From contig JAXGQW010000012.1 in NCBI GenBank assembly GCA_040766265.1, positions 7,901-71,900 on the forward strand: DNA of 64,000 nt. Reading direction: 5' to 3'. The stretch is from Verrucomicrobiota bacterium (lineage in GTDB: Bacteria; Verrucomicrobiota; Verrucomicrobiia; Limisphaerales; J093). A program made the position numbers and the translations under genes. The notes beneath the pieces are model-generated. The model saw only the letters and a program-made list of their open reading frames with translations, made no database searches and was not told where the DNA came from. Position 1 is the first letter of the stretch. Each line of letters starts with the position of its first letter. Of this stretch, positions 9,598-63,183 are shown piece after piece.

Positions 9598-9601
9598 TTG
9601 T

Positions 9602-13940: not shown

Positions 13941-13957
13941 GAGGCGTCCCGCCGGCC

Positions 13958-15313: not shown

Positions 15314-15318
15314 ATGAG

Positions 15319-15400: not shown

Positions 15401-15474
15401 CTAGCCCGCATATTGCACACCCCGATGGTGCCCAGGACACTCAGACTTCGCAAGAGGACCACTATGCGGGCTAG
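15401..15474. repeat. 74-nt CTAG-element A4
   Basis: CTAGCCCGCAT...ATGCGGGCTAG, with an A-class interior. Confidence 0.9.
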
Positions 15475-15478
15475 AGAA

Positions 15479-15590
15479 GCAAAACCGCGCCAGGTTCGAG
15501 AGATCGAGAACTGCAACACACTGTTCCCATGACAGACCACTCTCGGGACCGACAGAAAACTCCCGGTTCCCTTTCTGGGCGCGGTTTTGC
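15479..15590. repeat. 112-nt module B2 (inverted copy of B1)
   Basis: Same 13-bp arms. The interior is close to the reverse complement of 9499-9584. Confidence 0.85.
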
Positions 15591-15594
15591 CAGA

Positions 15595-15637
15595 GCCCGG
15601 GTGTCGGACTCCGCGGAGCTTTGTGAAACAACCGGGC
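15595..15637. repeat. 43-nt hairpin module F2
   Basis: Reverse complement aligns with 9439-9481 ('tttcacaaagct.cgcggagt'). Confidence 0.75.
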
Positions 15638-15647
15638 TAGCCCGCAT
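15637..15647. repeat. terminal remnant (CTAGCCCGCAT) of a 74-nt CTAG-element
   Basis: Only the 11-nt arm is present. Its last two nt plus the next G form the queE ATG. Confidence 0.6.
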
Positions 15648-26847: not shown

Positions 26848-26921
26848 CTAACCCGCATATTGGACGCCCCGTTCGTGCACAGGGCGGTCTGAATTCGCAA
26901 GCAGACTGCCATGCGGGCTAG
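26848..26921. repeat. 74-nt CTAG-element A6, lying inside the 3' end of the next CDS
   Basis: CTAACCCGCAT...ATGCGGGCTAG with an A-class interior. Confidence 0.9.
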
Positions 26922-28794
26922 ATCCGGGCTCCCCGAGAAGAACCGGAAGCAGTGTCAGGGCGTCCCGGAAGTCCGGGATGACCACGTCCGCGCCCACGCC
27001 CAGCAGGCGCTGCCGCTTCCACTCGTCGAACTGTCCCGAGCCGTTGTTGGCTTCGTCGCTGGCCACGGCGACGGCCAGGCCGCCGACCTCCTTCGTGTTT
27101 TGAATCTCGACGTAGCCGTCGCCGAACGAGAGCAACTGGGCGCCGTCGATACGGTTCTCCCGCAGGATGCGGTCGATCACCATCTTCTTCGAGAACTGTT
27201 TGTAGTCGTCGAGGGCGCCGTAGATGCGTGGGCCGAAGTACTGGGAGAGCCCCAGGGCCGCGGCCTCCTGTTTCACGAACACCTCGTCCGTCCCGCTGGC
27301 CAGGTAAAGCGAGAACCCGCGCCGCCGCAGCTCGTCGAGAAACGGGCGGGCTTCGAAGACGAGCAGATCGTCCGGCTCGAGCGTTCCGCCGGCGAGGGCG
27401 TCGATCCGATGGCGGATGCGGGCATCGAGCCGGCGCAGGTACTCGTGCTTGTACCAGAGCGGTTCGCGCGGCTCGCCTCCGCGCTCACGGATGCGCTCGG
27501 CCAGTTGGATCATCTGGTAGATCGTCTGCTTGCCGTTGAGCCGCATGATGTCCTCGAACGCCAACTGGCGCAGCGCCTCGGGCGTCTCGCCCGGTTGCGC
27601 CGGCAGCATCTCGACGAACATCGGCACCATCACATCCGGCCAGCCCTGCCGGATCAGCGACAGCGTGCCGTCAAAGTCGAACAGCACATGGCTGATGCCG
27701 GGGCGCGGCGCGAACGAGGGCGCGAATTCGACCAAACCGTGAAAAGACCCGCTTGCAGCCTGTTCTGGCGGTGTTGCGGCTTCGGGCTCGGGCCCTGTTT
27801 CCGCAATCTCGAGGTCTCCCGCTGCGGCCTCGGGGGTTTCGTTCGGCTCGATCAGGTGCGTTTCCTGCGGGCTGTCGATTGCCTGCGCCGGGCCGGACGA
27901 GACGCTGTCTCCCGGGGCGGCGGGCTGATCCGGGGAGTCGCCCGCGCTTCGAGGCGGCGATGGCTGGGGCAAGGCCTCGACCGATGACGTTGAGGCTGGC
28001 GCCGCGGCACCAGGTTGAACGGTCACGAGGGCGCGCCGGAGCAACTGACCCTGAAACACATGTCCGACGGCCACGGTCTCGAGCACCGTCGCGCCCTCGG
28101 GGACCGTCGCCTTCGCATCGGGCAACTGGTGCTTCTCGGGGTCGAAGGGCGTGCCCGGGGCGGCCACGATGGGGACCATGCCGACGCGGCGCGCGGCATC
28201 GCGGCAGGCGTTCTGAAACTGGGTGAACTCGTGGATGAGCCCGGCCTGGCCGGACCGCACGCCGGCCAGGTAGAGGGCGTAGACATTGTCCAGGATGCGG
28301 ACGAGGACCTGGAGCCAGTCGCCCTCGGCGCGGCGGAGTTTCGTGGCCTCGAGGCGCAGGTGATGGCGCTCGGAGTCCTCCGCTCTCTGCATGAAGGCCT
28401 GGAAGGCGCGCTGCTCCTCGGTCATGCGATCGATGACCTCGCGCGCCGCGGCGACCGTTTTGCCGGCGTGTTCGTGCGCCGTTTGCCACTGGCCGGTGGC
28501 GGTCTCGATGCGGCCCGCGACATCCTGGACCTGCTCGATTTGCCGGAGGGTGTCGGCCAGGCCATCCATCTCGACGAGCTTGAGTTCGGCGTGGTGCCGG
28601 AGGCGAAAGGGCCACACGGCCAGCATGGCGCCCAGGGCCACGCAGGCGGCAAAAGCGCACACCTCGATGGCTGTCATGGGCCGGTGCGCCTGCTGCCAGA
28701 TCACCAGGGCGGCTGCCACCAGGAGGAGGTCGCCGACAACAAAGGGCAGAAAGAGCTTTGCGCCCAGGTTCACTCGAGTGGTGCGGTCCGTCAT
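26848..28794 (-). CDS. membrane-anchored GrpE-like domain fused to a HAD-family hydrolase
   Basis: Two N-terminal TM helices and a coiled coil, then 'ILDNVYAL...GTPFDPEKHQ...VGHVFQGQLLRRALVTV' (GrpE C-terminal pattern). A Pro/Ala/Ser linker follows, then 'VLFDFDGTLS...ASGTD...SFGDG' (HAD motifs I-IV). Start at ATG 28794; the upstream part of the ORF-track ORF is repeat sequence. Confidence 0.75.
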   Translation of the reverse strand: MTDRTTRVNLGAKLFLPFVVGDLLLVAAALVIWQQAHRPMTAIEVCAFAACVALGAMLAVWPFRLRHHAELKLVEMDGLADTLRQIEQVQDVAGRIETATGQWQTAHEHAGKTVAAAREVIDRMTEEQRAFQAFMQRAEDSERHHLRLEATKLRRAEGDWLQVLVRILDNVYALYLAGVRSGQAGLIHEFTQFQNACRDAARRVGMVPIVAAPGTPFDPEKHQLPDAKATVPEGATVLETVAVGHVFQGQLLRRALVTVQPGAAAPASTSSVEALPQPSPPRSAGDSPDQPAAPGDSVSSGPAQAIDSPQETHLIEPNETPEAAAGDLEIAETGPEPEAATPPEQAASGSFHGLVEFAPSFAPRPGISHVLFDFDGTLSLIRQGWPDVMVPMFVEMLPAQPGETPEALRQLAFEDIMRLNGKQTIYQMIQLAERIRERGGEPREPLWYKHEYLRRLDARIRHRIDALAGGTLEPDDLLVFEARPFLDELRRRGFSLYLASGTDEVFVKQEAAALGLSQYFGPRIYGALDDYKQFSKKMVIDRILRENRIDGAQLLSFGDGYVEIQNTKEVGGLAVAVASDEANNGSGQFDEWKRQRLLGVGADVVIPDFRDALTLLPVLLGEPGSSPHGSLLANSDRPVHERGVQYAG

Positions 28795-28862
28795 GGGGCC
28801 GGAGGTTATGCCGGCGCACCCGCGGCTGGCCACGGAAAAGTTGCGTGAGGGCGGGGCGGGCG

Positions 28863-28995
28863 GTGCATGTGGTTGTTGTCGGTGCTTGTGTCGCCCGGTG
28901 AGGGCACCGGGGCTACACCGGTTGCAGACTCCCGGTGCAGGCCGCGTGCCCCCACGCAGCGCAAACCCGCTCCCCACCGACAATCTCCGATGCTG
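28863..28995. repeat. ~133-nt element E3 (inverted relative to E1/E2)
   Basis: Collinear with 35126-35258 and 51286-51418. Contains hairpins CCCGGTG-AGGG-CACCGGG and GCCGCGTG-CCCC-CACGC(A)GC. Confidence 0.85.
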
Positions 28996-29405
28996 TAGGC
29001 CGCGCCCTCACGCGGCGCGAGGACGACATCGGGGACGCCGGGTGGGACCCGGCCTACAAATGAACGGACACCGATGCTGTAGGCCGCGTGCCCTCACGCG
29101 GCGCGAGGACAGACATCGGTGCGGACGCCGGGTCAGGGGACCCGGCCTACAAATGAACGGACACCGATGCTGTAGGCCGCGTGCCCTCACGCGGCGCGAG
29201 GAGACATCGGTGCGACGCCGGGTCGGGGACCCGGCCTAAGAACGGACACCGGCAGGCCGCGTGCCCTCACGCGGCGCGAGGACAGACATCGGTGCAGACG
29301 CCGGGTCAGGGGACCCGGCCTACAAATGAACGGACACCGATGCTGTAGGCCGCGTGCCCTCACGCGGCGCGAGGGCAGCCATCGGTGCGGACGCCGGGCC
29401 AGGGG
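28987..29405. repeat. tandem array, about 5 units of 84-93 bp, hairpin-rich
   Basis: Unit starts (CCGATGCTGTAGGCCGCG) at 28987, 29071, 29164, 29249 (degenerate) and 29337. Each unit holds GCCGCGTG-CCCT-CACGCGGC and GCCGGGTC-AGGG-GACCCGGC hairpins. Confidence 0.9.
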
Positions 29406-29408
29406 AGA

Positions 29409-30692
29409 TCACTCGTAGCGGAGCGACTCGATGGGGTCGAGATTGGCGGCTTTGTAAGCCGGGTAGGTGCCGAACAGGACGCCGACGACCGAACAGATTG
29501 TGAGCCCGATCACGACCCAATCCAGGGGGATCACGGGCGGGAGCTTGAGGAAGTAAGCGGCCGAATTGCCGCCGAGGATGCCCAAGAGGACTCCGATCAC
29601 TCCGCCCACCTCGCAGAGCACGATCGCTTCCATGATGAACTGGGTCATGATGTTCCGCTTCTTGGCTCCGATCGCGCGGCGAATGCCGATCTCGCGCGTG
29701 CGCTCGGTCACCGACACCAGCATGATGTTCATGATGCCGATGCCCGCCGCCACCAGGGCGATCGAACTGACCACCGCGACGCCGATCCGGACGGTCAGAG
29801 TGAAGCTCTTGAACTGCGCGATCAGGGAGTCGTTCGAGAACACTTCGAAGTCATCCTCCACCCCCGGCTTCACCTTGCGCACCGTGCGCAGGATGCCGCG
29901 CACCTGCTCGACGGTGTCCTCGTACATCGCCTGATTCTGGGCTTGCACGAGAATGGACAGGCTCCGCCACATCCGCCCGTAGCGGTTGAGACCCGTTGTG
30001 AGCGGAATGATGGCGAAGTTGTCCTGGTCGCCCCCGAGCGAGGACCCTTTGGATTCGAGCACGCCGACCACTGTGTAGCCGATGCCGTCGAATTTGGCCT
30101 TCTCGCCCAAAGCCGACCCGTAGGGGAAGAGGATCTTGGCCAGACTCCCTCCCAGCACGCACACATCCTTCGCACTGTCGATATCCGATTCAATCAGCCC
30201 GCGGCCTTCGCCGACGATCCAGTTGCGCGCGGGGAATCCGCCCACGGTGGCGCCGATCAGGCTGACATTGGGCGGCGTCTTGTCGTAGCGCGAGATCGCC
30301 TCGCCGGACCAGAACCCGCTCTGGATGCCGACGGACTGGGCCAGGCTGGCCTTGTCCATCACCGCCTTGCCGTGGGCGAAGGTGATGTCCTTGCGGCGCA
30401 GATACTTTTCGAACCCCTCCGGCCCGCCGAAGTGCACAGCCGGCCATTTGCGGATCTGGAAGGTGTGGCTGCCCAACTGGCTGAGGTCCTTCTCGATTGT
30501 GCTCTGCAACACCCGCATGGATGTCATCACCACGATGATCGAGAACACGCCCACCAGCACCCCCAAAACGGTCAGGCTCGAACGCAGCTTGTGCGTCGTC
30601 AGCGCCCCGATCCCCATGAGGAAACTCTCCTTGACCTCAGCCCAGATCAGGTTGCGGCCGGCGTGCCGAGGGCGTGTCGGGAGAACGGTCAT
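29409..30692 (-). CDS. ABC transporter permease (MacB/FtsX family)
   Basis: N-terminal TM helix, a large periplasmic domain and a C-terminal FtsX 3-TM bundle ('TERTREIGIRRAIGAKKRNI'). Confidence 0.88.
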   Translation of the reverse strand: MTVLPTRPRHAGRNLIWAEVKESFLMGIGALTTHKLRSSLTVLGVLVGVFSIIVVMTSMRVLQSTIEKDLSQLGSHTFQIRKWPAVHFGGPEGFEKYLRRKDITFAHGKAVMDKASLAQSVGIQSGFWSGEAISRYDKTPPNVSLIGATVGGFPARNWIVGEGRGLIESDIDSAKDVCVLGGSLAKILFPYGSALGEKAKFDGIGYTVVGVLESKGSSLGGDQDNFAIIPLTTGLNRYGRMWRSLSILVQAQNQAMYEDTVEQVRGILRTVRKVKPGVEDDFEVFSNDSLIAQFKSFTLTVRIGVAVVSSIALVAAGIGIMNIMLVSVTERTREIGIRRAIGAKKRNIMTQFIMEAIVLCEVGGVIGVLLGILGGNSAAYFLKLPPVIPLDWVVIGLTICSVVGVLFGTYPAYKAANLDPIESLRYE

Positions 30693-34038: not shown

Positions 34039-34119
34039 CTCGGTATATCGTTAAGACACAACACCCGTCAGTTTGTTTCGGTCCGTCCAGCCCGGACATT
34101 GCCTAAGAAACATGCTTTC

Positions 34120-34192
34120 CTAGCCTGCATGCTGACTTCTCTTGAGAACTCCGGCTTCGCGGTGGCAGAAAGTCGTGATAAATGCAGGCTAG
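34120..34192. repeat. 73-nt CTAG-element H1 (CTAGCCTGCAT...ATGCAGGCTAG)
   Basis: Arms carry a compensatory C>T/G>A change. The interior is related to that of 39126-39199. The right arm contains the TAG stop of the Yip1 gene. Confidence 0.85.
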
Positions 34193-34983
34193 CCGCCGAA
34201 CAGCCGCTGCAGAAAGTGCCCGGCGACGATCCAAAGGCCGGTCCAGAGCAGCCACAGCCCGAACACCCAGGCGGCGCTCTTGGCGAACGTGGCGCCGCTC
34301 AATCGCGACAGGCCGATCGCACGCACGGCGAGCACCCAGAACGCCACGACATCCACGGCGGACATCAAACCGTGCGAGAGGTTGGCCGGATCGAAATCCT
34401 TGACCAACAGCATCGCCAAGTTGGCCCCGGCGTACAAGCTCCCAAAAGCCACCATCATGAGCGTCTTGATCACCGATTCGAGTATCGCCAACATGCCGAT
34501 CAGCCCGGACACCTCGACGGCCTTCATGTACGTGAACTCTCCGCCCAGCGCGTACCTGCCCACCAGAAACGTGATGAGCGCCCACCAGAAGACGAGTCCG
34601 ACGGCCATCAGGGGCGGCGCGGCGAACATCGCCGCCTGCCGCATGATCTTCCCGAACTTCTCGATCGTCGGTCTCTGGGCTTCGAGTTGCTCACGGGTCA
34701 TCCGGCCTTGTTCGATCATCTTCTGGTATTGCGCCTCCTGCAGGTCGCTGATCTGCTGCGTGATCGCCTCCTGGTGAAGCACCAGCCACGCCCCAATCCA
34801 GCCGACCAGCGTCGCCAGCAGCGTCGGCACCAGCCAGTTGGCCGTTCGCGTCGGACTGGCCTTCACCTCGTCGAACACGTCGGCGGGCGTGGCAAAGACA
34901 TTGAGCATCCGCGCCCCCAGCGAGGTCGAGGCGGGGATCGGGGGTGCGTCGTCCGGCGAATCGAGGGGAGCACTGTCGTTCAT
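34189..34983 (-). CDS. Yip1-family membrane protein
   Basis: N-terminal soluble segment 'FATPADVFDEVK' followed by five TM helices. Start at ATG 34983 (MNDSAPLD). Confidence 0.7.
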   Translation of the reverse strand: MNDSAPLDSPDDAPPIPASTSLGARMLNVFATPADVFDEVKASPTRTANWLVPTLLATLVGWIGAWLVLHQEAITQQISDLQEAQYQKMIEQGRMTREQLEAQRPTIEKFGKIMRQAAMFAAPPLMAVGLVFWWALITFLVGRYALGGEFTYMKAVEVSGLIGMLAILESVIKTLMMVAFGSLYAGANLAMLLVKDFDPANLSHGLMSAVDVVAFWVLAVRAIGLSRLSGATFAKSAAWVFGLWLLWTGLWIVAGHFLQRLFGG

Positions 34984-35125
34984 AACGGCAAAGATCCAGA
35001 AATATACTGCGTTTGGCGTCGGCGACAATCTCCGAATGCGCCCGGTTCGTCAGCTACAACCCGACGCCGGGTTTGTACTTCACACCCGGAGTTCGCACCG
35101 GCCTCTTCCAACGCGGTCACACTCA

Positions 35126-35258
35126 GTGCATCTGTCAGTTGTCGGTGGGAATGGAGTATGCGCCGCGTGGGGGCACGCGGCCTACAGCGGGAGTCTCCAT
35201 CCGTTGGAGGCCCGGTGCCCTCACCGGGCGACAGAATGTCGACGACTCACAGATGCAC
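35126..35258. repeat. 133-nt element E1 with 19-bp terminal inverted repeat GTGCATCTGTCAGTTGTCG
   Basis: 17/19 arm match (35126-35144 vs 35240-35258). Internal hairpins GCCGCGTG-GGGG-CACGCGGC and CCCGGTG-CCCT-CACCGGG. Confidence 0.9.
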
Positions 35259-35479
35259 CGGGTCACAGTGAGGGGTGCGCAATGGGGATGACAGGACACG
35301 AGAGACACGGTACAAAACAGTCCAAGAAACGAGCCTGCAAATGACCCCGAATGAAACACGGATGAGGCACCGACCGGTTCGCAGTGCGAGCCTTGCCGCG
35401 AAAGTGCAGAACGGGCGCGGCGCTCGCGCCTCTTCCGCAGTCGCATTTTCCCTGTGCGATCTGCGAAGGCTCTGTCTAA

Positions 35480-35560
35480 CGAGGCGCGCCTCAGACCAAA
35501 TCCAATCCTCTTTTCCACGAGGAGTCCCTGTGTTTCCTCGCCCCTCGCTCCCGCGCCTCG
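35480..35560. repeat. 81-nt element I2
   Basis: Aligns with the reverse complement of 15319-15400. Arms are CGAGGCGCG/CGCGCCTCG. Confidence 0.8.
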
Positions 35561-35561
35561 G

Positions 35562-35644
35562 TAGAATCCTTGCGAAACAGAAGAGATAGGGGTGAGGGCC
35601 AAACTTGACCTGATCACAACATGTTTGGGGTTTCAAGGATTCTA
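35562..35644. repeat. 83-nt C-type element C3 (TAGAATCCTTG...TTTCAAGGATTCTA)
   Basis: C-family arms with a divergent interior. It contains the ATG of the next gene. Confidence 0.7.
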
Positions 35645-36766
35645 GCGGCGCTGTGTGCGCTTGTAGCGCTGTTGTTTTTCAGTCGAGCGAGTTTCGGAGG
35701 AGAAGGCCAACCCGGATTCATCGCCGAGGCCTCTCGGGGTGAAGGCATCGCGCCTTCGAAGGATCCACCATTCTACTCGGACAAGCTGAATCTGTTGTGC
35801 TTTCGGGATGAGGCGGGCCTCGAGCGCCCTGTGCTTGGGACGGCGGATTGGATGAAGCGGCGGGGCCATATTCTTGCCGCGATGGAGCAGGTGATGGGGG
35901 CTCGACCGCCGCTCGAATTCGAAGGTCCGCCCCAGGTCGAGGTGCTCGAGGAGACCCCGACCGCCAACGGCGTGCGCCGGAAGATCCTCTACACCGCGGA
36001 ATCGCCCACGAACCGGGTGCCGGCTTATCTGTTCATCCCGCGGAGCGGCGGCGCCAAGCGTCCCGCGATGCTGTGTCTGCACCAGACAACGCCGGAAGGC
36101 AAAGCCGAGATGGCCGGATTGCGCGGCAGGACGAATCGGCAGTTTGGTCTCGAAGTGGCGCAACGAGGCTACGTCACGCTGGTGCCGGACTACCCGAACT
36201 TCGGCGATTACCGGCGCGACGCCTATGCGGCCGGTTACGCCAGCGCCACCATGCAGGGCATCGTCAACCACCGTCGCGCTCTCGACCTGCTGGCGTCGAT
36301 GCCTGAAGTGGACGCCCGCCGCATCGGCGTGCTCGGTCATTCGTTGGGGGGGCATAACGCGCTGTTTCTGGCCGTGTTCGACGAGCGCGTGCGGGTGGTG
36401 GTGACCAGTTGCGGCTTCAACGCGTTCTCGAAGTATTATGGCGGCAATCTGGCCGGCTGGAGCCATGCCGGGTACATGCCGCGGATTCGTTCGGTGTACG
36501 GCTGCGATCCACGGCGGATGCCCTTTGATTTCACCGAGGTGCTCGCCGCCATCGCCCCGCGGCCCGTCTTCATCAACGCGCCGCTGCATGATGACAATTT
36601 CGAAGTGTCGGGGGTCAAGGACTGTGTCCAGGCCGCCGCCCCGGTCTACCGGCTCCTCGGCGCGGTCGAGGCGCTGGTGGCCGTCTACCCCGATGCGGAG
36701 CACGACTTTCCGCCCGAGGTGCGCCGGCAGGCTTACGCCTGGCTCGACCGGCAACTGGGGCTTTGA
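35621..36766 (+). CDS. secreted alpha/beta hydrolase (dienelactone hydrolase / esterase-like)
   Basis: Signal peptide, nucleophile elbow 'GHSLGG' and C-terminal 'AEHDFP'. Confidence 0.8.
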   Translation: MFGVSRILAALCALVALLFFSRASFGGEGQPGFIAEASRGEGIAPSKDPPFYSDKLNLLCFRDEAGLERPVLGTADWMKRRGHILAAMEQVMGARPPLEFEGPPQVEVLEETPTANGVRRKILYTAESPTNRVPAYLFIPRSGGAKRPAMLCLHQTTPEGKAEMAGLRGRTNRQFGLEVAQRGYVTLVPDYPNFGDYRRDAYAAGYASATMQGIVNHRRALDLLASMPEVDARRIGVLGHSLGGHNALFLAVFDERVRVVVTSCGFNAFSKYYGGNLAGWSHAGYMPRIRSVYGCDPRRMPFDFTEVLAAIAPRPVFINAPLHDDNFEVSGVKDCVQAAAPVYRLLGAVEALVAVYPDAEHDFPPEVRRQAYAWLDRQLGL

Positions 36767-36850
36767 CGTTGCACCTGGATGCGCGGCCCGTCCGGTCGCG
36801 TGCAAAGTCGCGGTCACCGTTGACATGGGAGGGTGACGTGTGGGCGGAGA

Positions 36851-36957
36851 CCATGAACCGGAAACGTTCAACGCTCAACGTTCAACGCTCAACGCTCAAC
36901 GCTCAACGCCCAACGTTCAACGCTCAACGTTCAACCCATCAACCATCAGCCATCAGA
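36851..36957. repeat. G-type element: CCATGAACCG head plus 13 tandem heptamers
   Basis: 36867-36957 is 13 x 7 nt: ten (C/T)(C/T)CAACG-type units then three CATCA(A/G)(C/A) units. The same head occurs at 46578 and 60142. Confidence 0.85.
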
Positions 36958-37950: not shown

Positions 37951-39113
37951 GAGGCGCGGGCGGCCAGGCGACCGGGGCGCCGGCCGGGGGGGCGTCCGAC
38001 GATCTGGACCAGGGCCTGTTGGAGGACGAGAGCTTCCTCGAGTTGACTCGACACGAGGCGGCGGTTGGAGACGAGCAGAACGTCCATCGCCCGCACCAAC
38101 TCCTCGGCCGTGTACTGTCCGGCCTGGGGCAGCGCCTTGAAGAGGACATACGGATGCATGGCAGCCGGGTTGTAGCGCTTGTCGTCGGGCATGGCTTCGG
38201 ACGGCAGCCGTCCCAACTGAGACTTGAAGCGGCTGTAGTCGACGTCCGGCGCGAGCAGGCCGAGTCGGAACATCTCCTTGAGGAGGAGCAGCGTGCGCAC
38301 CTTCGAGATGAGCCCATACAAAAGCCCGATCGCGGTCTTCTGGCGATCGAACTGCATCTCCCACAATTCCTCGTCGAGGCAACGGAGCGCGCGGGGCAGA
38401 TCGCGGTCCCCGAGGGCTTCGCCCAGGGCGAAGGCGCGCGCCTGTTTGTTGCGGCTCACGACCGCATGCACGTCGGCCACGGTGATTTCGGGGCGTCCGG
38501 CGGCGTAGAGCGAGAGCTTCTCGATTTCCTGCGACAACTGGCGCAGGTTGGGGCCCACCGCCGACACCAGTTCGCCGAGCGCTTCATCCGACATCTCCTG
38601 CCGGCGCGTCCGCAATTCGCCTCGGACGAATCGCTCCGCCTGGTCGGCCCAATCCTTGTCGTCGGCCGACAGTCCGGCGAGGGACTCGACGGCCCCCAGT
38701 TTCTCGATGGTTTTCGAGAAGGTTTTCCGGCGGTCGACCTTTCCGGCGGTGATGAGCAGGCGCACGTTGTCCCACGGGAAGCGCTTGAGTTCCTGGGCCA
38801 GGTCGTTCAGGGACGCGGTGACGGCCTGGGCGCCGGCAACACGTTCGTCTCCCAGGAAATTGCAGTGGCGCAACCAGATGACTTTGCCGCTGCCGAAGAA
38901 GGGCAGGGTCTGGAGCGCCTCGCGGAGTTTGGCCAGGGACCGGAGCGCCTCGTGACTGTTCGAGACGGTGGCGTCGATGGTCTCATGGTCCATCCCGCCA
39001 ATCTCCTTGCACCAGTCCGCATACAATTGCCGACCCCGCTGCAGCACGGCGAAATCGTCCTCGCCGCACACGAGCACCAGGGGTGCGGCGGGCTTGGGCT
39101 GGGCTGCCTTCAC
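37947..39113 (-). CDS. holA: DNA polymerase III subunit delta
   Basis: 388 aa. 'LVLVCGEDDFAV', length and helical C-terminus are typical of HolA. GTG start. Confidence 0.75.
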   Translation of the reverse strand: MKAAQPKPAAPLVLVCGEDDFAVLQRGRQLYADWCKEIGGMDHETIDATVSNSHEALRSLAKLREALQTLPFFGSGKVIWLRHCNFLGDERVAGAQAVTASLNDLAQELKRFPWDNVRLLITAGKVDRRKTFSKTIEKLGAVESLAGLSADDKDWADQAERFVRGELRTRRQEMSDEALGELVSAVGPNLRQLSQEIEKLSLYAAGRPEITVADVHAVVSRNKQARAFALGEALGDRDLPRALRCLDEELWEMQFDRQKTAIGLLYGLISKVRTLLLLKEMFRLGLLAPDVDYSRFKSQLGRLPSEAMPDDKRYNPAAMHPYVLFKALPQAGQYTAEELVRAMDVLLVSNRRLVSSQLEEALVLQQALVQIVGRPPGRRPGRLAARAS

Positions 39114-39125
39114 GGGGTGCCCACG

Positions 39126-39199
39126 CTAACCCGCGTGGGTCCGCGTCTTGGAGTCTCCGGCGTCGCGGTGGTCACAACTCGGTGAAACATGCGGGTTAG
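39126..39199. repeat. 74-nt CTAG-element A7 (divergent interior)
   Basis: CTAACCCGCGT...ATGCGGGTTAG, 13 nt upstream of the holA start. Confidence 0.85.
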
Positions 39200-39242
39200 C
39201 CCGGATTTCTCACCACTGCGAAGATGACAAAGAAATCCGGGC
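39199..39242. repeat. 44-nt hairpin module F3
   Basis: CCCGGATTTCT...AGAAATCCGGG forms an 11-bp stem. Confidence 0.8.
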
Positions 39243-39246
39243 TGTG

Positions 39247-39358
39247 GCAAAACCGCGCCGGGAGAGGTGAAAGCCTGGGTCTGGTCGAGCGGGAAGACGC
39301 AGTCGCAAACCGACGCCCCGTTGCCTTCGTCCCTCCCTCCAACCCGGCGCGGTTTTGC
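39247..39358. repeat. 112-nt module B3 (same arms and length as B1/B2, unrelated 86-nt interior)
   Basis: GCAAAACCGCGCC at 39247-39259 and GGCGCGGTTTTGC at 39346-39358. Confidence 0.85.
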
Positions 39359-39362
39359 TTGG

Positions 39363-39436
39363 CTAGCGCGCATGAGTGCACCTTTCGATGACATCGGCTC
39401 CGCGTTGTTCAGAAGTTGTTGAGCAATGCGCGCTAG
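39363..39436. repeat. 74-nt CTAG-element D1 (CTAGCGCGCAT...ATGCGCGCTAG)
   Basis: Near-identical to 63110-63183. The right arm contains the TAG stop of the next gene. Confidence 0.9.
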
Positions 39437-39888
39437 GCGGCGCTCTCCCCGCCGGATTCGCTCATGCGTGCGAGGTATTCGGACATGTCGTCGACCTGGT
39501 CAAGGAGGCTGCGCGTGACGTAGATGGGGCGTTTCTGGGCGGTGGCCAGGGCCAGGCAATCGCTGGGGCGCGCATCGAGTTCCACGATCTTGCGGCCCAG
39601 TTCGTTTTGCTGCTGCAGGATCAGGCGGGCGAAGTAGGTCGCGTTCTTCAGTTCGGTGATCACCACACGCTCGACGCTGATGCCGAACGCGGTCAGGAGA
39701 TGAACGAACAGATCGTGCGTCAGCGGCCGCTCTTTCGGGGTGTCGCGCAGGAACATTCCGATCACCGCCCCCATGTTGTGCTCGACCTGGATGACAAAAA
39801 CCTTCTCGTCGTTGCCGACAAACACGGCGACGCCGTTGTTGGCCGGCAAGATGCCGCGAATCTCGACAGCCGCCACGTCCTGCTTCAT
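39433..39888 (-). CDS. bifunctional nuclease family (BFN/DUF151) protein
   Basis: 'VFVIQVEHNMGAVIGMFL...RPLTHDLFVHLL...ITELKNATYFARL...DARPSDCLALA'. Start at ATG 39888. Confidence 0.8.
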   Translation of the reverse strand: MKQDVAAVEIRGILPANNGVAVFVGNDEKVFVIQVEHNMGAVIGMFLRDTPKERPLTHDLFVHLLTAFGISVERVVITELKNATYFARLILQQQNELGRKIVELDARPSDCLALATAQKRPIYVTRSLLDQVDDMSEYLARMSESGGESAA

Positions 39889-40122
39889 GGGGTCAATGTA
39901 AGAGACCGGACGCAAAAGACAAGCCCACGCCATGACCCGCCAGCAGTCTAATCTGCCGTGTCGGCGTTTTGAGTAAAGACTCCGCTGCGGGAATCGCGAG
40001 GCCCTCTTCGGTGAGGGATGGAACCTGCCCCAGGCTCGATCGCGCCAGATGAGCCACCTGGCCGATCAACCCGCACTTCACGCTCGTCAAACCCGACCCA
40101 TTGGGCTACTTTTCCGGCGTTT

Positions 40123-41265
40123 ATGTGCAGAACGTGGATCTTTCTGCGAGGCGGCCTTGTCGGATGTCTCTGTCTGGCGTCACTCGCCTTTCCAGCCGAT
40201 CCGGCGGGGCGGCCCGCCCCAACACCACCGCCACTGCCGCCGGCACCGCCGGCCCGCGGGACGCCCGCCGGCCCGGTTTCGGCCCGAGCGCCGGCGTCCG
40301 CGGCGTCTGTGTCGACGAACAGCGCGGCGGCTCCTCGCGCGACGCCCGCGCGCGCCGGGACGGTGAATCAGCGGTTCTCGCCCGGGGCCGTCAGCGTCCC
40401 GTTGTCCGATCCGTCCTACATCCCGGGCTTGACCCCGGCGATCGTGGTCGGGCCGCCCGTACCTCTGGCGCCCCAGCAGCCCGGCACGCCGTTCCCGTAC
40501 TCCGCTCCACGGCCCGCGCGCGTCCAGGAGACGGTGTTCGCCTATGACGCTTTGATCAAGGAAACCACGCTCAAGGCGGGCGAGACCTCGGCCTACTTCA
40601 CCTTTCAACTGACGAATACTTCGCCCGAGGCGGTCACCATCAACGCCGTGCGCACATCCTGCGGTTGCGCCGTCGCGAAGTTGCCGTCCGTTCCGTGGCG
40701 AATCGAGCCGCAGGCGAGCGGGGCGTTCGATGTGGTGGTGGACGTACGCGGCTCGAGGGGCGTGGCCACGAAGACTGTGACGATCGACAGCACGGCCGGT
40801 TACCGCTACCTCACGGTGCGTGTGGCGATGCCCGAGTCGGCGTCGCCGATGGCCGCGGCGGACCGCGCGCGGAACCTGCAGGTTGCGTTGGCGGATCGCC
40901 AGGCGGTTTTCAAGGGGGATTGTGCCGCATGCCATTTGCAGCCCGTGATTGCGCAGCATGGGCAGGCGCTGTTCAAGAGCGCCTGCGGCATCTGCCACGA
41001 GGCCCAACGCCGGGCTGCCGCGGTCCCCGACTTGCGGGCCCTGAACAAGCCCACGGATCGGGCCTACTGGTCGGGCTGGATTGCGAAGGGGAAACCGGGC
41101 GGCCTCATGCCGGCCTGGGCTATCGATGAAGGAGGACCGCTGACCGACCGCCAAATCGAGTCGTTGCTCGATTACCTCACAGGCCCTTTCCGAAACGAAC
41201 CGGCTCGCGCGCCGCTGGCGCCGGGGGCCCCGACACGATCCGGCACAACGCCAGCCGTCCGATAG
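40123..41265 (+). CDS. DUF1573 domain protein fused to a di-haem c-type cytochrome-like C-terminus
   Basis: Signal peptide, a Pro/Ala-rich linker, 'FTFQLTNTSPEAVTINAVRTSCGCAVAKL' (DUF1573), then CAACH and CGICH motifs. Confidence 0.75.
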   Translation: MCRTWIFLRGGLVGCLCLASLAFPADPAGRPAPTPPPLPPAPPARGTPAGPVSARAPASAASVSTNSAAAPRATPARAGTVNQRFSPGAVSVPLSDPSYIPGLTPAIVVGPPVPLAPQQPGTPFPYSAPRPARVQETVFAYDALIKETTLKAGETSAYFTFQLTNTSPEAVTINAVRTSCGCAVAKLPSVPWRIEPQASGAFDVVVDVRGSRGVATKTVTIDSTAGYRYLTVRVAMPESASPMAAADRARNLQVALADRQAVFKGDCAACHLQPVIAQHGQALFKSACGICHEAQRRAAAVPDLRALNKPTDRAYWSGWIAKGKPGGLMPAWAIDEGGPLTDRQIESLLDYLTGPFRNEPARAPLAPGAPTRSGTTPAVR

Positions 41266-41371
41266 TCGGTCGAGCAGTCCTCATGCGGGATCCGACCGCC
41301 ACGTCCGGTGACGGAGCGCGAAATCCCTTTTTTCCGTTGACTGGCGGAAGCTGCTTGATCAGGTTTCGCTC

Positions 41372-44110
41372 ATGATACAAAGGATCTCCGAGTTGATTCT
41401 TCTCACAGGGTTGCTGATTGGTTCGCCATCCGTGTGCGCGCGCAATATCGTCCTGTTCATCGGAGACGGCATGGGTTTCGAGCACGTTCAGGCGGGAAGG
41501 CTTTACCTCAATGGAACTGACACAACGCCCTTGTTCATGGAAACCCTGCCGTATGCAGGGGCGGCGATTACGGTGCTGCCAGGTGGAGGCGTGACGGATT
41601 CGGCGACCGCAGGAACCGCTCTCGCCACCGGTTACCAGCATCCGTCCGCCGGCACGATCAGCATGAACGCAGCCGGCTTGCCCGTGACAACGATTCTCGA
41701 ACGGGCAAGAGACGCCGGGCTGCGAACCGGCATTGTCACCACCGACGACATCGTCGGAGCGACACCGGCCGCCTTTGGCGCCCACGAGGCTTCCCGGGAT
41801 AACACTGCGCAGATTCGAAACGACTACCTTTGGGGCGATGCCCTGCACAGCCCGAGTTTGCCGACTGTCTTGTTGGGAGGCGGATACCTCTCGACGTTCG
41901 TAGAGGACGCCGTGTCGCCTGCGCTTGGGTATGCGTTTGCGGGTTCGGCGCAGACGCTCATGGAAATCGCTCCCGATCCTGGACGGGTATTGGGACTTTT
42001 CAAAGCCGGTCCATTGACCCGGGAGAACGATCGTTCGCTCGACAATGCCGAGCCTCGCCTCAGCCAGATGGCCACCGCCGCTCTCGCGTGGCTGACCCAG
42101 GCTCCCGGCGGTTTTTTCCTGATGGTCGAGGGCGCGTTGATCGACAAGATCAGCCACGAGGGCAACACGCCCAACGCGAAGAGCGACCTGCCACCTGAAG
42201 TCGCGCAATTCGACACGGCTGTCGCAGCCGTTTCCCAATGGCTCTCGAGCCGCGGTCTGTTGGGCGACACCCTGATCCTGGTCACCGCCGATCACGAAAC
42301 CGGATTGCTCGATGTGGTCGATGGACAAGAAATCACGCCGGGCACAATCCCGGCCATGACCCTCTACTCGACCGGACACAGCACTCGGAACGTTCCCGTT
42401 TTTGGCTCGTGGCCGCATGCTCTGGGCGGATCCTTGATTGACAACACGGAGACCTTCTTCGTCATGGAAGACTGGCTCATGGGTTTGGCGGGCGCGCCGC
42501 CCATCATCGAGGATCTGGATGTGGTCGAGATCACACGCGCCAGCGCGCGCGTCCGATGGCACACCGTGGAGCCGTCGACGACCCGGCTGGACTGTGGCGG
42601 CTTCGTCTTCGAGGACTTGAACCGCGTCCTGTATCACGAAGTGCTGCTCACCGGCCTCATCGAGGGTTCGTCCTACAGCGTCAACGTGGATTCGACCGAT
42701 CTCGCCGGCTTCACGGGACAAGCCAGCACCGATTTCACGACGGCCGCGCCGGACGTTAATGCCTATGTGCTCGCGGACCCTGTCGGGACGGGAACGCTGT
42801 CGGGATCGTACGGCAGCTTGATGCCTCCCTCCGACGGGCTTGTCCAGACAATCACGGAGGTGCCGGACGGGGTCGGATCGTCGCTCGATGTCGTCTACAC
42901 CCTCGGCACATCGGCTTCTCCCGCCGAGGTGATCTCGATCTCGCTTGACGTGCAGTTGACATGGGTCAACGCAGACCGATTTGCCGACGATCTCACGATC
43001 ATGGTGTGGGACTCCATGAACCAGTCTTTCGACTTCCTCGCATCCAACGCTGGCGGCCTCTTCGCTCTCGGGCCTGGGCATTTGTATTGGAATGACGCCC
43101 GCGGATGTTACTGCATCGATGTGCGTCTGAAAGACAGCGCCTCAATTGCCAAGGAGAAGAAAGGGAAGGTGAGTGTGGACGTCCTCTGGGCGGCGATCGT
43201 TGCTGGAGAACCGGATCTCGATCCCCCCGCGGTTCCATCCGATCTGGTGGCGACCCAGATCACGGACGGGGGCATGGACCTGACGGCCCAATTGGCCTGG
43301 ACAGCGAGTCATCCCAGCGATGTGGCGTATTACAAGATCTACCGGGGTGGGATCACGGTCGGAACATCCGCCACACCCGGTTTTGTCGACCGGGTGACTT
43401 CGGGAGGAACCTACAGCTACACGGTTTCGGCAGTCGATTCGGTCGGGAACGAAAGCGCCCCGAGTCTGGCGGCGTCGGTCTCTCTGGAGAACCTGTACGC
43501 GCCCTCGATTCCGTCCAATCTCACCGCGGTGGCAGGGGATGGTCAGGTGATGCTGGCCTGGAGCCCGAGCAGCGAAGCGGACATCGACGGTTACAATGTC
43601 TACGGCGGGTTGGACGCAGAGGCGATGGTCTGTCTGAACCAAGAACCTGTCTCAGCCAGCTCATACCTGGATGCAGGCCTCGAGAATGGCGTGACATACT
43701 ATTATGCCGTGGAGGCGGTCGATACGGGCGGAAGAATAAGCGGTCTCTCCACCGCGGTCTTCGCGATCCCCAGTTCGTTGCCGACTCTTCTGGCGACCAC
43801 GGACGGTTCTTTGGCCGCGGCGGGCAAGAATTGGAAGGCGGTCGCAAGTGTCGCGGTCCGCGATCAGTCGCAGAGCGCTGTCGCGGGAGTTTCGGTTTCC
43901 GGACAATGGTTCCTGGATTCGGCGCCGCTGCAAGCGCCGGTCGCCGGCGTCACGGATGCAGCGGGCGCCGTCACATTTGCGGCGCCTCTGGTCAAAGCCG
44001 CTCCGGGCCAAGTGTTCCAGTTTACTCTATTGGATGTGCAGTTGGCTGGATACCGATTTGATCTGGAAAACAGCGACGTCGTCTTCAGCGCGACGGTGCC
44101 CGCCAAATAG
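41372..44110 (+). CDS. alkaline phosphatase with C-terminal fibronectin-III-like repeats
   Basis: 'IVLFIGDGMGFEH', 'GGVTDSATAGTALATG' and 'VTADHETG' in the N-terminal ~400 aa. These are followed by repeated 'L.W..S...D...Y.(I/V)Y' FN3-type modules. Confidence 0.85.
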   Translation: MIQRISELILLTGLLIGSPSVCARNIVLFIGDGMGFEHVQAGRLYLNGTDTTPLFMETLPYAGAAITVLPGGGVTDSATAGTALATGYQHPSAGTISMNAAGLPVTTILERARDAGLRTGIVTTDDIVGATPAAFGAHEASRDNTAQIRNDYLWGDALHSPSLPTVLLGGGYLSTFVEDAVSPALGYAFAGSAQTLMEIAPDPGRVLGLFKAGPLTRENDRSLDNAEPRLSQMATAALAWLTQAPGGFFLMVEGALIDKISHEGNTPNAKSDLPPEVAQFDTAVAAVSQWLSSRGLLGDTLILVTADHETGLLDVVDGQEITPGTIPAMTLYSTGHSTRNVPVFGSWPHALGGSLIDNTETFFVMEDWLMGLAGAPPIIEDLDVVEITRASARVRWHTVEPSTTRLDCGGFVFEDLNRVLYHEVLLTGLIEGSSYSVNVDSTDLAGFTGQASTDFTTAAPDVNAYVLADPVGTGTLSGSYGSLMPPSDGLVQTITEVPDGVGSSLDVVYTLGTSASPAEVISISLDVQLTWVNADRFADDLTIMVWDSMNQSFDFLASNAGGLFALGPGHLYWNDARGCYCIDVRLKDSASIAKEKKGKVSVDVLWAAIVAGEPDLDPPAVPSDLVATQITDGGMDLTAQLAWTASHPSDVAYYKIYRGGITVGTSATPGFVDRVTSGGTYSYTVSAVDSVGNESAPSLAASVSLENLYAPSIPSNLTAVAGDGQVMLAWSPSSEADIDGYNVYGGLDAEAMVCLNQEPVSASSYLDAGLENGVTYYYAVEAVDTGGRISGLSTAVFAIPSSLPTLLATTDGSLAAAGKNWKAVASVAVRDQSQSAVAGVSVSGQWFLDSAPLQAPVAGVTDAAGAVTFAAPLVKAAPGQVFQFTLLDVQLAGYRFDLENSDVVFSATVPAK

Positions 44111-44214
44111 CGGCCGCGGCGCAAGAGCGGCCGCAGCATTCGTCCTCGGAGGGATGGCTGGCAGCGCGTCGGACTGCGAGGGTCCGGCGAGCTTGCCGTT
44201 GAGGGTTTGCTTTT

Positions 44215-44288
44215 CTAACCCGCATAGCAGTCCTCTTGCGAAGTCTGAGTGCCCTGTGCACCATAGGGGTGTGAAATATGCGGGTTAG
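44215..44288. repeat. 74-nt CTAG-element A8
   Basis: CTAACCCGCAT AGCAGTCCTCTTGCGAAGTCTGAGTGCCCTGTGCACCATAGGGGTGTGAAAT ATGCGGGTTAG. Confidence 0.9.
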
Positions 44289-44344
44289 GCTGGGATGTCC
44301 CGAGAGTCGCTTGACGGCCGGCAATGCGATGTAGCCTGCCTTCG

Positions 44345-45688
44345 TCATGCGTTGCGGGCCTCCCTCTCCAGCTTGCGCAGCCGATCCGTCAAGGCGGGCG
44401 AAGCTGTGAACAGGATTTTGCGGCCTCGTTTCTTTTGGTCCAAGACGCCGCGCTCGTGGAGGCCGAGCAAATCCGTGCGAGCGGTCTGATACACCACATT
44501 GTGGCTCTTCTGGTGGCTGGCGATGCTGTATTCCTGGAACGGATGTTTGAGGGCGTGCATGATCAACTCTGCCTGCCGGTGGTTGAAAAGGCCCAGCGCC
44601 GGCAGACGCGCCTCCACTTCCCGGACCTCCGTGGTCTTGCGGGCGATGTAGTCGTGCAATTCGACAATCGCCCGGCGGATGACTTTGGTCTGCGCGACGA
44701 GAAAATAGGTGAGGTCGTTATCGTCCGTCTCCGTGTGGAGAAACGAGCGGCCGTAGTCGACCGGGGCTTTGCGCAGGATGTTCGAGATGGAGATGAACTC
44801 AAACAGCCAATAGCCCGCGTGCAGCATGGCCCAGTAAAAGAGCGCCCGAGCCGTGCGTCCGTTGCCATCGACAAACGGGTGATCGTAGGCCAGCCAAAAA
44901 TGCAGCGCGATGGCCCGGACGACCGGGTGGACGAAATAGCCGGGCGACTTTCCGTTGGCGAAGTCACACATGGCCTGGAATCGCGCAGGCAGTTCGGCGG
45001 CCGGTGGCGGCTCGTGAAAAACCTCGCCGAAGTCGTTTCCGACGAGCCGCTTCTCGTCCGGCCGGCGAAAACGCCCAGCCGCTGCTGCATCCTCGAGGGT
45101 CTTCTCCGTAACCAAGCGGTGAATCGCCAGCACCGTCTCGGGCGAGAGCGGCTCCTTTTTCAACTCCGTGATCCGCTGCATGGTAACGTAGTTGTTCAGG
45201 ATCATCTGCTCGCTGGTGTCGCGCGGTGGGCGGCCGGTGCGGATCATCTCCTTGGCGACCTCGCGGGTCGTAACGGCGCCTTCCAACTGGCTGGACGTGA
45301 TTGCTTCTTCGATGAGGGAGCGGATGAGGTAGCGGTCTCGGGTCTGCGGATTGGTGATCGGCTCCGGAATTCCGATGGCGGAACCAGCCCCCACGTCGAT
45401 CTCATGCAACTCCGCTTGCACCGGGTCCGGCACGCAGAAGCTGAATGGCCGCCCCAACTTGTCCAGAAGAGGCAGGGGCTTGGACGCCCCAGTGCGTTGG
45501 AACTTGACCGCCAGCCACCATTCTTCAGAAGTGAACCCGGCGGGCGCAGGTAAATGCCGCAGCTTCTCCCAATGCGGATAGTCTGCGTAAGGCGTGCGGG
45601 ACAACTCCAAGATGGCGTTCAGGCGCTGGTTTGCGTCCTGTTGGCTGAGCAATTCCCGAAATGACGGCGGTTTTTGCGGCATTTTCAT
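44345..45688 (-). CDS. Fic family protein (class II, N-terminal inhibitory helix)
   Basis: Core 'HPFVDGNGRTAR' and an upstream 'SSQLEG' that fits (S/T)xxxE(G/N). Start at ATG 45688, with an alternative at 45682. GC is visibly lower than in the neighbours. Confidence 0.88.
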   Translation of the reverse strand: MKMPQKPPSFRELLSQQDANQRLNAILELSRTPYADYPHWEKLRHLPAPAGFTSEEWWLAVKFQRTGASKPLPLLDKLGRPFSFCVPDPVQAELHEIDVGAGSAIGIPEPITNPQTRDRYLIRSLIEEAITSSQLEGAVTTREVAKEMIRTGRPPRDTSEQMILNNYVTMQRITELKKEPLSPETVLAIHRLVTEKTLEDAAAAGRFRRPDEKRLVGNDFGEVFHEPPPAAELPARFQAMCDFANGKSPGYFVHPVVRAIALHFWLAYDHPFVDGNGRTARALFYWAMLHAGYWLFEFISISNILRKAPVDYGRSFLHTETDDNDLTYFLVAQTKVIRRAIVELHDYIARKTTEVREVEARLPALGLFNHRQAELIMHALKHPFQEYSIASHQKSHNVVYQTARTDLLGLHERGVLDQKKRGRKILFTASPALTDRLRKLEREARNA

Positions 45689-45790
45689 CACCAAATTACT
45701 ACTAATGTATTTCAATTTAGCAGTTTGTTGGCAACTGCCAAATTGACCGAAGTTAGCATTATTAGGGGTCAAACCATAGCCTTGCCTCGA

Positions 45791-45937
45791 TCAATCGTAG
45801 TATTTCGCGCTGGCTTCCCGGTGGTCATGCGTCAGGAACCGGCGCCAGAAGCGCAGCGTCTCGAGCTGCACAATGGTCGCCAGCGTAAACAAGTGGAGGT
45901 GGCGGAATCCGCCGTGCTTGTCGAAAAGCTCAGCCAC
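45791..45937 (-). pseudogene. 48-codon N-terminal fragment resembling four-helix-bundle-suffix / 23S-IVS-type proteins
   Basis: 'VAELFDKHGGFRHLHLFTLATIVQLETLRFWRRFLTHDHREASAKYYD*'. The 'F..L..F.LA..I...T..F..RFL' pattern matches the start of that family, and the ORF is truncated by a stop. Confidence 0.35.
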
Positions 45938-45982
45938 TCAATCACGGCGACCGAACCGGTTTGAGGAATCTGACCTATTGGC

Positions 45983-46577: not shown

Positions 46578-46642
46578 CCATGAACCTGAAACGTTCAACG
46601 TTCAACGTCCAACTCTCAACTCTCGACTCCTCGGTTCGTAGG
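46578..46642. repeat. short G-type element (CCATGAACCT head, about 5 heptamers, CGGTTCGTAGG tail)
   Basis: 'ccatgaacctgaaacgttcaacgttcaacgtccaactctcaactctcgactcctcggttcgtagg'. Confidence 0.7.
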
Positions 46643-47934: not shown

Positions 47935-47970
47935 GGTCGGATTCGAGTTGTCGACGTCGGGTGGGGGCGG

Positions 47971-48210
47971 TCAAGGATTCTGGCGCGAGCCCGGGCCGCG
48001 GGCGTTGGGCTGGTCCGGACGGTTTTTGGCGCGCCAGGCGAACAGGGCCATGAGGCCTCCGAAGAGCAGGAGGACAAGCCCCCACCAGAGGTTGATGTTG
48101 ATTCCCAGCGAGCGCTGGTAGCTTTCGGGGCCGGAGAGCGCCCCGGTGAGGACCAGGAGGGCTCCGACCAGCGTGAACATGAGACCGATGGGCCAGCGGA
48201 TATCGAGCAT
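47971..48210 (-). CDS. small membrane protein (79 aa, 2 TM) downstream of the symporter
   Basis: Two hydrophobic helices, 27 nt downstream of the symporter stop. No family recognised. Confidence 0.5.
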   Translation of the reverse strand: MLDIRWPIGLMFTLVGALLVLTGALSGPESYQRSLGININLWWGLVLLLFGGLMALFAWRAKNRPDQPNARGPGSRQNP

Positions 48211-51285: not shown

Positions 51286-51418
51286 GTGTATCTGGAGGTT
51301 CTCGGTGGGAATCGGGTTTGGGCCGCGTGGGGGCACGCGGCCTACACCGGGAGTGTCGATCCCGTGCAGGCCCGGTGCCCTCACCGGGCGGCATCACACC
51401 GACAACTGGCAGATGCAC
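51286..51418. repeat. 133-nt element E2
   Basis: Collinear with E1 without indels: landmark blocks sit at +15, +45, +85 and +125 in both. Confidence 0.9.
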
Positions 51419-51569
51419 CGAGAAGTGCGGGGGGACGGCGCACGCGCTTGACGCAACCCGGTTCGCTGGTATTGTCGCGCCTCTTTGAGATGGGACGCAC
51501 CCTGCGCAGACCGCGATGGCAACGGGATTTGCCGTGCGGGCCGGGGTGCGGCACAGCGAGCGCATTTGC

Positions 51570-63109: not shown

Positions 63110-63183
63110 CTAGCGCGCATGAGTGCACCTTTCGATGACATCGGCTCCCCGTTCTTCAGAAGTTGGTGAGAAATGCGCGCTAG
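63110..63183. repeat. 74-nt CTAG-element D2
   Basis: CTAGCGCGCAT...ATGCGCGCTAG, with the same interior class as 39363-39436. The right arm contains the TAG stop of the next gene. Confidence 0.9.

Follow-up and report, generated by a model that had tools for sequence, protein, structure and literature searches.

Short repeats in the window

The window (the whole 64-kb stretch of DNA analysed) contains three copies of a composite of short repeats, called here copies I, II and III. Copy III occupies the site between the stop codon of a BFN-domain gene and the start of holA. On the forward strand it begins with a 74-mer of the X type (39126-39199, class F, CTAACCCGCGTG...CATGCGGGTTAG). This is followed by module H, a 44-nt hairpin (39199-39242, GCCCGGATTTC...GAAATCCGGGC), the conserved spacer TGTG (39243-39246), module B (39247-39358), a second spacer, TTGG (39359-39362), and module X (39363-39436, 74 nt, class D, CTAGCGCGCATG...ATGCGCGCTAG). 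B is 112 nt long with a terminal stem of 13-16 bp (GCAAAACCGCGCC / GGCGCGGTTTTGC), and its interior belongs to subfamily B2. The terminal CTAG of X provides the TAG stop codon of the BFN-domain gene (39433-39933, minus strand). The leading 74-mer and the H-B-X part (unit III) have TA 39197-39198 in common, and the 74-mer is a separate insertion adjoining the H end of the unit.

Copy I is in two parts, 8242-8314 and 9439-9675, with an insertion sequence (IS) between them. The first part is a degenerate X-type element of class A (forward strand), which adjoined the H end of unit I and is now split off by the IS. Unit I (9439-9675, forward strand) comprises H (9439-9481), TGTG, B (9486-9597), TTGT and an X of class A (9602-9675), and its terminal TTAG provides the TAA stop codon of a minus-strand gene (9672-10814). 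The IS (8315-9436, forward strand) is a member of the IS630 family, with HTH_33/HTH_23 domains encoded by its first frame and a DDE_3 domain by its second; the two frames are joined at an A9 slippery run near 8840, probably by programmed frameshifting. It sits exactly in the TTAG junction between the 74-mer and H. Copy II contains an inverted unit (15401-15637, minus strand), with an X of class A at 15401-15474, B at 15479-15590 and H at 15595-15637. Copies I and II are 85% identical over 239 nt.

The module coordinates given for all three copies in a preliminary description of the window were upheld when the window was re-read, and the modules are real sequence units. That description was also right in stating that B is 112 nt in all three copies, that the distal 74-mer of copy III belongs to a different class (D) and that copy I is split by an IS. 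One assignment has to be withdrawn. What had been taken for the truncated first element of copy II (15637-15648, forward strand, CTAGCCCGCATG) is native flanking sequence: the corresponding site in the sibling genome CAYPUR reads exactly GCC-TAG-CCCGCATG-queE, with no element. This element-like native 12-mer carries the queE start codon, which comes from its CATG.

B and H never occur outside the composites in the window; X also occurs alone. Solo copies of class A are located at 13795-13868 (minus strand; its CTAG is the stop codon of the CorA gene, 12806-13798), at 26848-26921 (unstranded; its end is the stop codon of the minus-strand gene 26848-28983) and at 44215-44288 (forward strand). 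A class E copy (34120-34192, forward strand) and a class D copy (63110-63183, forward strand, 94% identical to 39363-39436) likewise end in the stop codons of the minus-strand genes 34189-35028 and 63180-63962. In total, six genes of the window have their stop codon inside an element end (at 9672, 13798, 26848, 34189, 39433 and 63180). The X classes A, D, E and F align without gaps and have a common core. Just upstream of the class E copy, positions 34093-34119 read CAGCCCGGACATT and then GAAACATGC, resembling an H remnant and an X end after a deletion; the orthologous site in L156 carries a complete H-B-X unit.

Two further repeats bounded by CTAG/CTAA, K (15241-15313) and R (15314-15400), are stacked in the TA between the stop codon of a histidine-kinase gene and unit II. 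Other members of the K family are found at 13866-13946, 35601-35650 and 47939-47988 (...GGTCAAGGATTCTAG), and another of the R family at 35512-35560 (CTAGCGAGGCGCG...CGCGCCTCGCTAG). Both families use TA sites common to X and H-B-X, and several K/R-type copies follow the CorA stop codon in CAWJWM (L190).

The window also includes a full-length 6S RNA gene (6844-7029, forward strand; Rfam RF00013, 55 bits). The CTAG at 6898, inside this gene, is one of the few outside repeats. Tandem repeats of the heptamers CGTTCAA/CGCTCAA, of about 14 units, occupy intergenic positions 36837-36949 and 46578-46627. In a distant relative (L160), the BFN|holA junction carries a similar array of the CAACYATCAAC type.

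Recurrence and geometry of the H-B-X unit

Taking one genome per species, we scanned for two B ends 76-96 nt apart. This yielded at least 72 loci, of which at least 71 come from about six Verrucomicrobiota MAGs; the remaining match listed, in an unrelated genome, is due to chance. Fetching the loci by their exact B ends biases the sample. The recurrence of the B-end pattern is nonetheless far beyond chance. There are at least 77 B copies including those of the window; among the matches listed, 59 are exactly 112 nt long and the others differ by one to a few bases.

Nearly all B copies among the matches listed lie between H and an X-type element, in a single orientation and with the same order and spacing. 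The arrangement is H-4 nt-B-4 nt-X, and complete units among the matches listed measure 232-245 nt with a mode at 237-238. The H/B spacer is TGTG in 37 and TCTG in 13 of the 63 units among the matches listed, and the B/X spacer, TTGG in unit III, is TTTY in most of the copies among them. Exceptions to this arrangement are few: an R repeat holds the X position in L046 and L072, L051 has H on both sides of B, and L064 has X on both sides. B was never found next to ordinary sequence among the matches listed.

The original proposal was of a four-module composite that begins with a 74-mer. The recurrent part proves to be H-B-X. The leading 74-mer is a neighbour and not a component, since an X-like end adjoins H in at most 5 of the 63 units among the matches listed (one of the five being the native queE flank); at the copy III site it also occurs by itself in L153.

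The family was not found in loci from more distant Limisphaerales (0.43 Mb) or in unrelated ones (1.2 Mb). It does occur in JAKQDD, a genome in which the ortholog of a 220-aa protein has only 64% identity, and is confined to a small clade of Limisphaerales-like, uncultured Verrucomicrobiota. The searchable literature yielded no account of these elements.

Across 47 units, H, B and X occur in 20 different class combinations, two of which account for 21 units. The classes of the three modules are nevertheless linked (Mantel r of 0.50 for H-B, 0.47 for H-X and 0.34 for B-X, all with p<0.0005). B adjoins one particular end of X in 56 cases and the other in 3, although the two 12-nt ends of X are identical.

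Inverted ends and a TA target

The ends of the whole unit are inverted repeats of each other. In unit III the left repeat is the first ~20 nt of H (39199-39242) and the right one the last ~20 nt of X (39363-39436). The consensus of the first 20 nt of H (GCCCGGATTTCTCACCACCG) and that of the reverse-complemented last 20 nt of X (GCCCGCATTTCTCACCACCT) are identical at 18 of 20 positions. The two ends also co-vary: their identity within units is 0.668, compared with 0.619 +/- 0.011 for permuted partners, and none of 2000 permutations reaches the observed value. X taken alone has shorter inverted ends, of 9-12 nt, with compensatory changes between classes; its ends match only over these first 9-12 nt (identity 0.88, falling to 0.26 further in). 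H-B by itself lacks inverted ends. Judged from sequence, H-B-X is built like a miniature transposon whose inverted ends are ~20 nt long, and X like a shorter element with the right end in common.

The flanks indicate the target. H is preceded by CTA in 23 and by TTA in 20 of the 63 units among the matches listed. Where the four-base flanks are not palindromic they are inverted (CTAA...TTAG) and not direct, and their inner base pair co-varies, being G..C in 31 units and A..T in 12. Since the flanks are inverted and the terminal pair co-varies, the duplication is TA and not four bases. The units are also of the size expected for MITEs: at 232-245 nt, and at 74 nt for X, they leave no space for a transposase gene. 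They have terminal inverted repeats and a TA duplication (read from one clean filled/empty pair), and they occur as many dispersed copies with unrelated flanks that are present or absent between related genomes.

CTAG itself is rare in the window, with 19 occurrences compared with 211 expected from base composition, an approximately eleven-fold under-representation; 13-14 of the 19 sites are element ends. A TA duplication inside a CTAG-like target is the pattern of IS630/Tc1-mariner elements, and IS630 prefers CTAG and duplicates TA. A transposase of this type may therefore be acting in trans; the link to IS630 would draw on the target and the TA duplication only. The single IS630-family copy in the window (8315-9436) has 28-nt inverted ends (TTCGATTTCGCTTTCAAGTTGAGACTAA) with no relation to those of the small elements (GCCCGCATTTCTCACCAC and GCCCGCATGTTTCACAC). 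A search of 3.3 Mb of fetched loci for an autonomous partner, in the form of inward-facing end pairs 600-4000 nt apart, identified none: the candidate pairs enclosed ordinary genes or repeat debris and no transposase.

These features bear on the idea that the modules are REP/BIME palindromes spread by a RAYT (Y1) transposase or, alternatively, IS5-family MITEs with a 4-bp CTAG/YTAR duplication. Extragenic palindromic mosaics at gene 3' ends are what such systems produce, and the genome does include GTAG-tagged palindromes (28937-29370). The IS5-derived MITEPsy1, moreover, inserts at CTAG or YTAA with a 4-nt duplication (PMC3189936). H, B and X, however, carry neither a GTAG nor a CGTC tag; their first letters are CTAG/TTAG or GCAAAAC, and their lengths of 44, 112 and 74 nt exceed the 20-40 nt of REPs. 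Their CTAA...TTAG flanks are inverted and not direct, so that there is no 4-bp duplication; the fourth base is matched by its counterpart (GC in 31 units, AU in 12), and filled and empty sites differ by a TA. As the duplication is TA only, an IS5-like mechanism of the MITEPsy1 type is excluded, and the likelihood we give to the REP/IS5 explanation as a whole is close to negligible. The GTAG-tagged palindromes (GTAGGCCGCGTGCCCNCACGCGGC) resemble classical REP-type sequences and form a family distinct from the CTAG elements; they are found as a 93-nt tandem array at 28937-29467 and also at 35126-35260 and 51286-51420.

Divergence of the B interiors

The preliminary description considered the 86-nt interior of the third B copy to be unrelated to the others. 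This does not hold. In register and without gaps, the interior of copy III has 44-45% identity to those of copies I and II (44% for I with III), compared with 26 +/- 4.6% for shuffled interiors; none of 5000 shuffles reaches 44% and the excess is seen at offset 0 only. The B copies listed align essentially gap-free, with the motif CAC-N3-GTTGC in common at a fixed position. Because of this in-register identity, shared motif and gap-free alignment, the interiors are diverged homologues forming subfamilies, and the apparently swapped interiors reflect diverged subfamilies of the same modules together with module exchange between units. Selfish spread alone does not account for the constancy of B length (112 nt) across ~55% interior divergence.

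Two possible identities for B were considered and rejected by eye: the motif does not fit an IHF site (WATCAANNNNTTR), and the ends do not fit the RYYYAAC/GTTRRRY of attC-like sites.

Filled and empty sites in sibling genomes

We compared orthologous loci from sibling genomes with 91-96% nucleotide identity. At the copy III site, L157 and the distant relatives are empty, with a stop-to-start gap of a few bases. L156 contains only D and L153 only F. The window carries D-B2-H1-F and L154 D-B3-H2-F (B and H being of other classes), and in L155 an unrelated ~290-nt element accompanies F. At every one of these junctions a TA is common to both sides. The D elements of L154 and L156 have a private variant in common (CTGACGAAC), and B-H is present in L154 only.

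The copy II site, between the histidine-kinase stop codon and the queE start, provides the clearest comparison. L187 is empty there (GCCTAGCCCGCATGTCCGATCAT, that is GCC TA GCCCGCATG-queE). L189 reads GCC TA (X(F)-H) TA GCCCTCATG, with a unit of another class from which B has been lost by a CGG...CGG microhomology deletion. The L187/L189 pair displays a clean duplication of TA and is the only filled/empty pair clean enough to be read directly; other filled and empty sites are blurred by deletions. In the window and in L188, K, R and X-B-H are all found in this one TA. Different complete X-B-H units are thus present in two lineages at a site that is empty in a third. The copy I site is empty in L189, where the IS 8315-9436 is absent too.

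An automated search for empty sites with 30-nt flanks returned a single case, which was unclean, and a metagenome scan for further states of the copy III site returned only two that were already known. An exact look-up of the BFN-domain protein gave no match, and the histidine kinase, used as a query for orthologous loci, gave only distant paralogues among the matches listed.

Other differences between these loci were noted in passing. Upstream of holA in L154 and L156 (about 9930-10000), the ATG of an element end (CATGC..GCTAG) is in frame with holA and has apparently replaced its start codon. L154, L155 and L156 have ~2.5-2.8 kb of extra DNA at the position of 39941-40064 of the window, L154 has ~2.65 kb at the position of 41265-41329 that the window does not have, and 41265-45968 of the window is missing in L155.

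The sibling series has to be weighed against a different account of the unit, which treats H-B (~165 nt) and X (74 nt) as independent elements that never move as one unit, H-B always entering the TA at one end of a resident X-like element. Solo X does exist and is nearly identical to X carried by units, the two being interleaved in clustering. At the BFN|holA junction, D stands alone in L156 and beside B3-H2 in L154 with the same private variant. R, another CTAG-ended repeat, can hold the X position (L046 and L072), and 20 class combinations are present among 47 units. Against this, H-B has no inverted ends of its own, and the same X end lies against B in the same orientation (56 compared with 3) despite identical 12-nt ends. 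Co-variation links the left end of H to the distal X end, B next to ordinary sequence was not encountered among the matches listed, and at a site empty in one lineage two others carry different complete X-B-H units. The state of L156 can also be explained by a deletion between two CTAG-RAA repeats. We consider separate movement of H-B and X unlikely. The missing inverted ends of H-B, the fixed X end, the co-varying ends and the linked classes all favour movement of H-B-X as a single piece. The mixed class combinations may then have arisen by recombination, with units exchanging parts at the invariant spacers and B ends, or else by the use of alternative ends.

RNA structure and possible use by the host

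A structured RNA had been suggested at the outset: the composite would be an ncRNA or a cis-acting RNA element (operon punctuation, stabiliser or terminator) whose spread is secondary. Several properties are compatible with this. Every module forms a hairpin of its own, the 311-nt composite exceeds shuffled sequences in stability (z of -3.8 and -4.6), the H and X stems have compensatory changes, and module lengths are constant across ~55% divergence. Where the neighbouring genes run in the same direction, transcription would read X->B->H in 13 of 16 cases according to a rough GC3-based gene call, and on one strand the terminal stem of B is followed by TTTT.

The structure nevertheless does not extend beyond the module ends. 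RNAalifold applied to 47 units retained the three terminal stems (the B ends being fixed by the search pattern), and applied to all B copies listed, by class and on both strands, it returned the terminal stem only. Averaged pair probabilities also gave only terminal stems, with no interior helix common to the classes. The 86-nt B interior has no excess stability over dinucleotide shuffles (MFE z of -0.6 and -0.4) and the two strands behave alike (p=0.97); the composite as a whole folds equally well on both. At the gathering threshold the sole Rfam match in the window is the 6S RNA elsewhere, and a permissive scan of 39050-39500 gave only miRNA matches at chance level. A pattern scan revealed no terminator-like or sigma-70-like/promoter-like site. 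Finally, since the elements are present or absent at orthologous sites of sibling species, they are dispensable there. The covariation check proposed in the preliminary description revealed compensatory changes in the stems of H and X and no shared structure in the B interior. Taken together, these results make a structured RNA very improbable.

Two other tests on B, of fold-back register and of all columns against each other, were uninformative. A strand asymmetry was also considered: in the outer stem, a G-U/A-C asymmetry gave a hint in favour of the X->B->H strand, but the energies of the whole interior do not differ between strands.

A related possibility is that the host makes use of H-B-X, as intercistronic punctuation, a structured insulator or a processing or termination site, or through B as a binding site for a host or transposon protein that fixes the spacing. 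If true, this would explain the fixed lengths and spacers across ~55% divergence and across genera, the orientation bias and the supply of stop and, apparently, start codons. The bias itself (the outer X end faces a gene 3' end in 35 cases and not in 16, by the rough GC3-based gene call) is the only hint of strand-specific selection. Selection against the orientation that places the B stem and TTTT on the mRNA would explain it without any positive function. On balance, use by the host seems to us a decidedly doubtful proposition.

A probable explanation: mobile elements that rebuild their own target

The explanation we prefer, with a probability of about 0.72, is that the composites consist of IS630-like MITEs that target TA within CTAG, rebuild their own target and stack. 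It builds on what can be read directly: the recurrence and geometry of the units, their inverted ends, the TA shared at junctions, a single clean duplication of TA, and the empty or differently filled state of orthologous sites.

The basic element would be X (74 nt, inverted ends of 9-12 nt, classes A, D, E and F). A transposase recognising the X ends could also carry H-B-X as a whole, because the right end of X reappears, inverted, as the left end of H. Each element would start with G or A and end with C or T, with the duplicated TA outside, which would produce CTAG, CTAA or TTAG at both of its ends. Later insertions would then land in these rebuilt sites and give end-to-end stacks exact to the nucleotide; the extra 74-mer, K, R and the IS630 copy would be instances of such separate insertion into one TA. 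CTAG-like sites are very scarce in the genome and mostly coincide with stop codons, so that the targets left would be the ends of earlier elements and those TAG stop codons that follow a C. The scarcity of CTAG and its rebuilding by the elements would thus account for the exact junctions, for the IS630 copy in a TTAG and for the stop codons within element ends.

Of the three interpretations originally offered for the conserved geometry, two each cover a part of it. That of a single composite mobile unit agrees with H-B-X, in view of its inverted repeats, TA flanks, linked classes and presence or absence between genomes; it does not extend to the added 74-mer. That of very specific end-to-end insertion describes the extra 74-mer, K, R and the IS630 copy, as separate insertions into a TA already in use.

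A simple rule, that elements inserting into the TA of CTAG rebuild CTAG at both ends, would be enough to produce composites of such exactness. On this reading H-B-X represents a new family of mobile elements, ordinary in kind, and not a new RNA, and it reveals no new mechanism. For the annotation of Verrucomicrobiota MAGs, the practical consequence is that this guild of repeats breaks assemblies, sits on stop codons and can provide start codons. For the study of mobile elements, it offers sibling series in which one TA is empty, singly filled or multiply filled, and a 74-nt element that doubles as the end of a longer one.

Comparison with known systems

Duplication of TA is documented for ISY100 (PMC2170065), and bacterial MITEs derived from IS630/Tc1-mariner elements include RUP of Streptococcus pneumoniae and Correia of Neisseria (reviewed in PMC2229807). 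H-B-X elements resemble these in being short and non-coding, in having inverted repeats and a TA duplication, in occurring as many dispersed copies at gene ends and in forming hairpins when transcribed. They differ in being built of three self-contained palindromic modules, of which the right-hand one is mobile itself.

In its modular construction, H-B-X resembles the BOX elements of Streptococcus pneumoniae. These are composites of boxA, boxB and boxC in a fixed order, with stable hairpins, dispersed in intergenic regions, and H-B-X likewise has distinct modules in a set order. BOX elements, however, vary in the number of boxB copies, whereas H-B-X has one copy of each module and a fixed length. 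To our knowledge, TA/CTAG targeting and stacking are not features of BOX.

H-B-X elements also share with the BIMEs of enterobacteria, which are composed of REP units, a mosaic of palindromic units, conserved short spacers and a location at gene 3' ends. REPs measure 20-40 nt, bear a GTAG or CGTC tag and are associated with RAYT transposases (PMC3733652); the H-B-X modules are longer and untagged, and H-B-X duplicates TA. MITEPsy1 of Pseudomonas syringae, a 100-nt MITE derived from IS5, has a CTAG or YTAA target and generates a 4-nt duplication (PMC3189936), whereas the flanks of H-B-X are inverted (CTAA...TTAG) and TA alone is duplicated.
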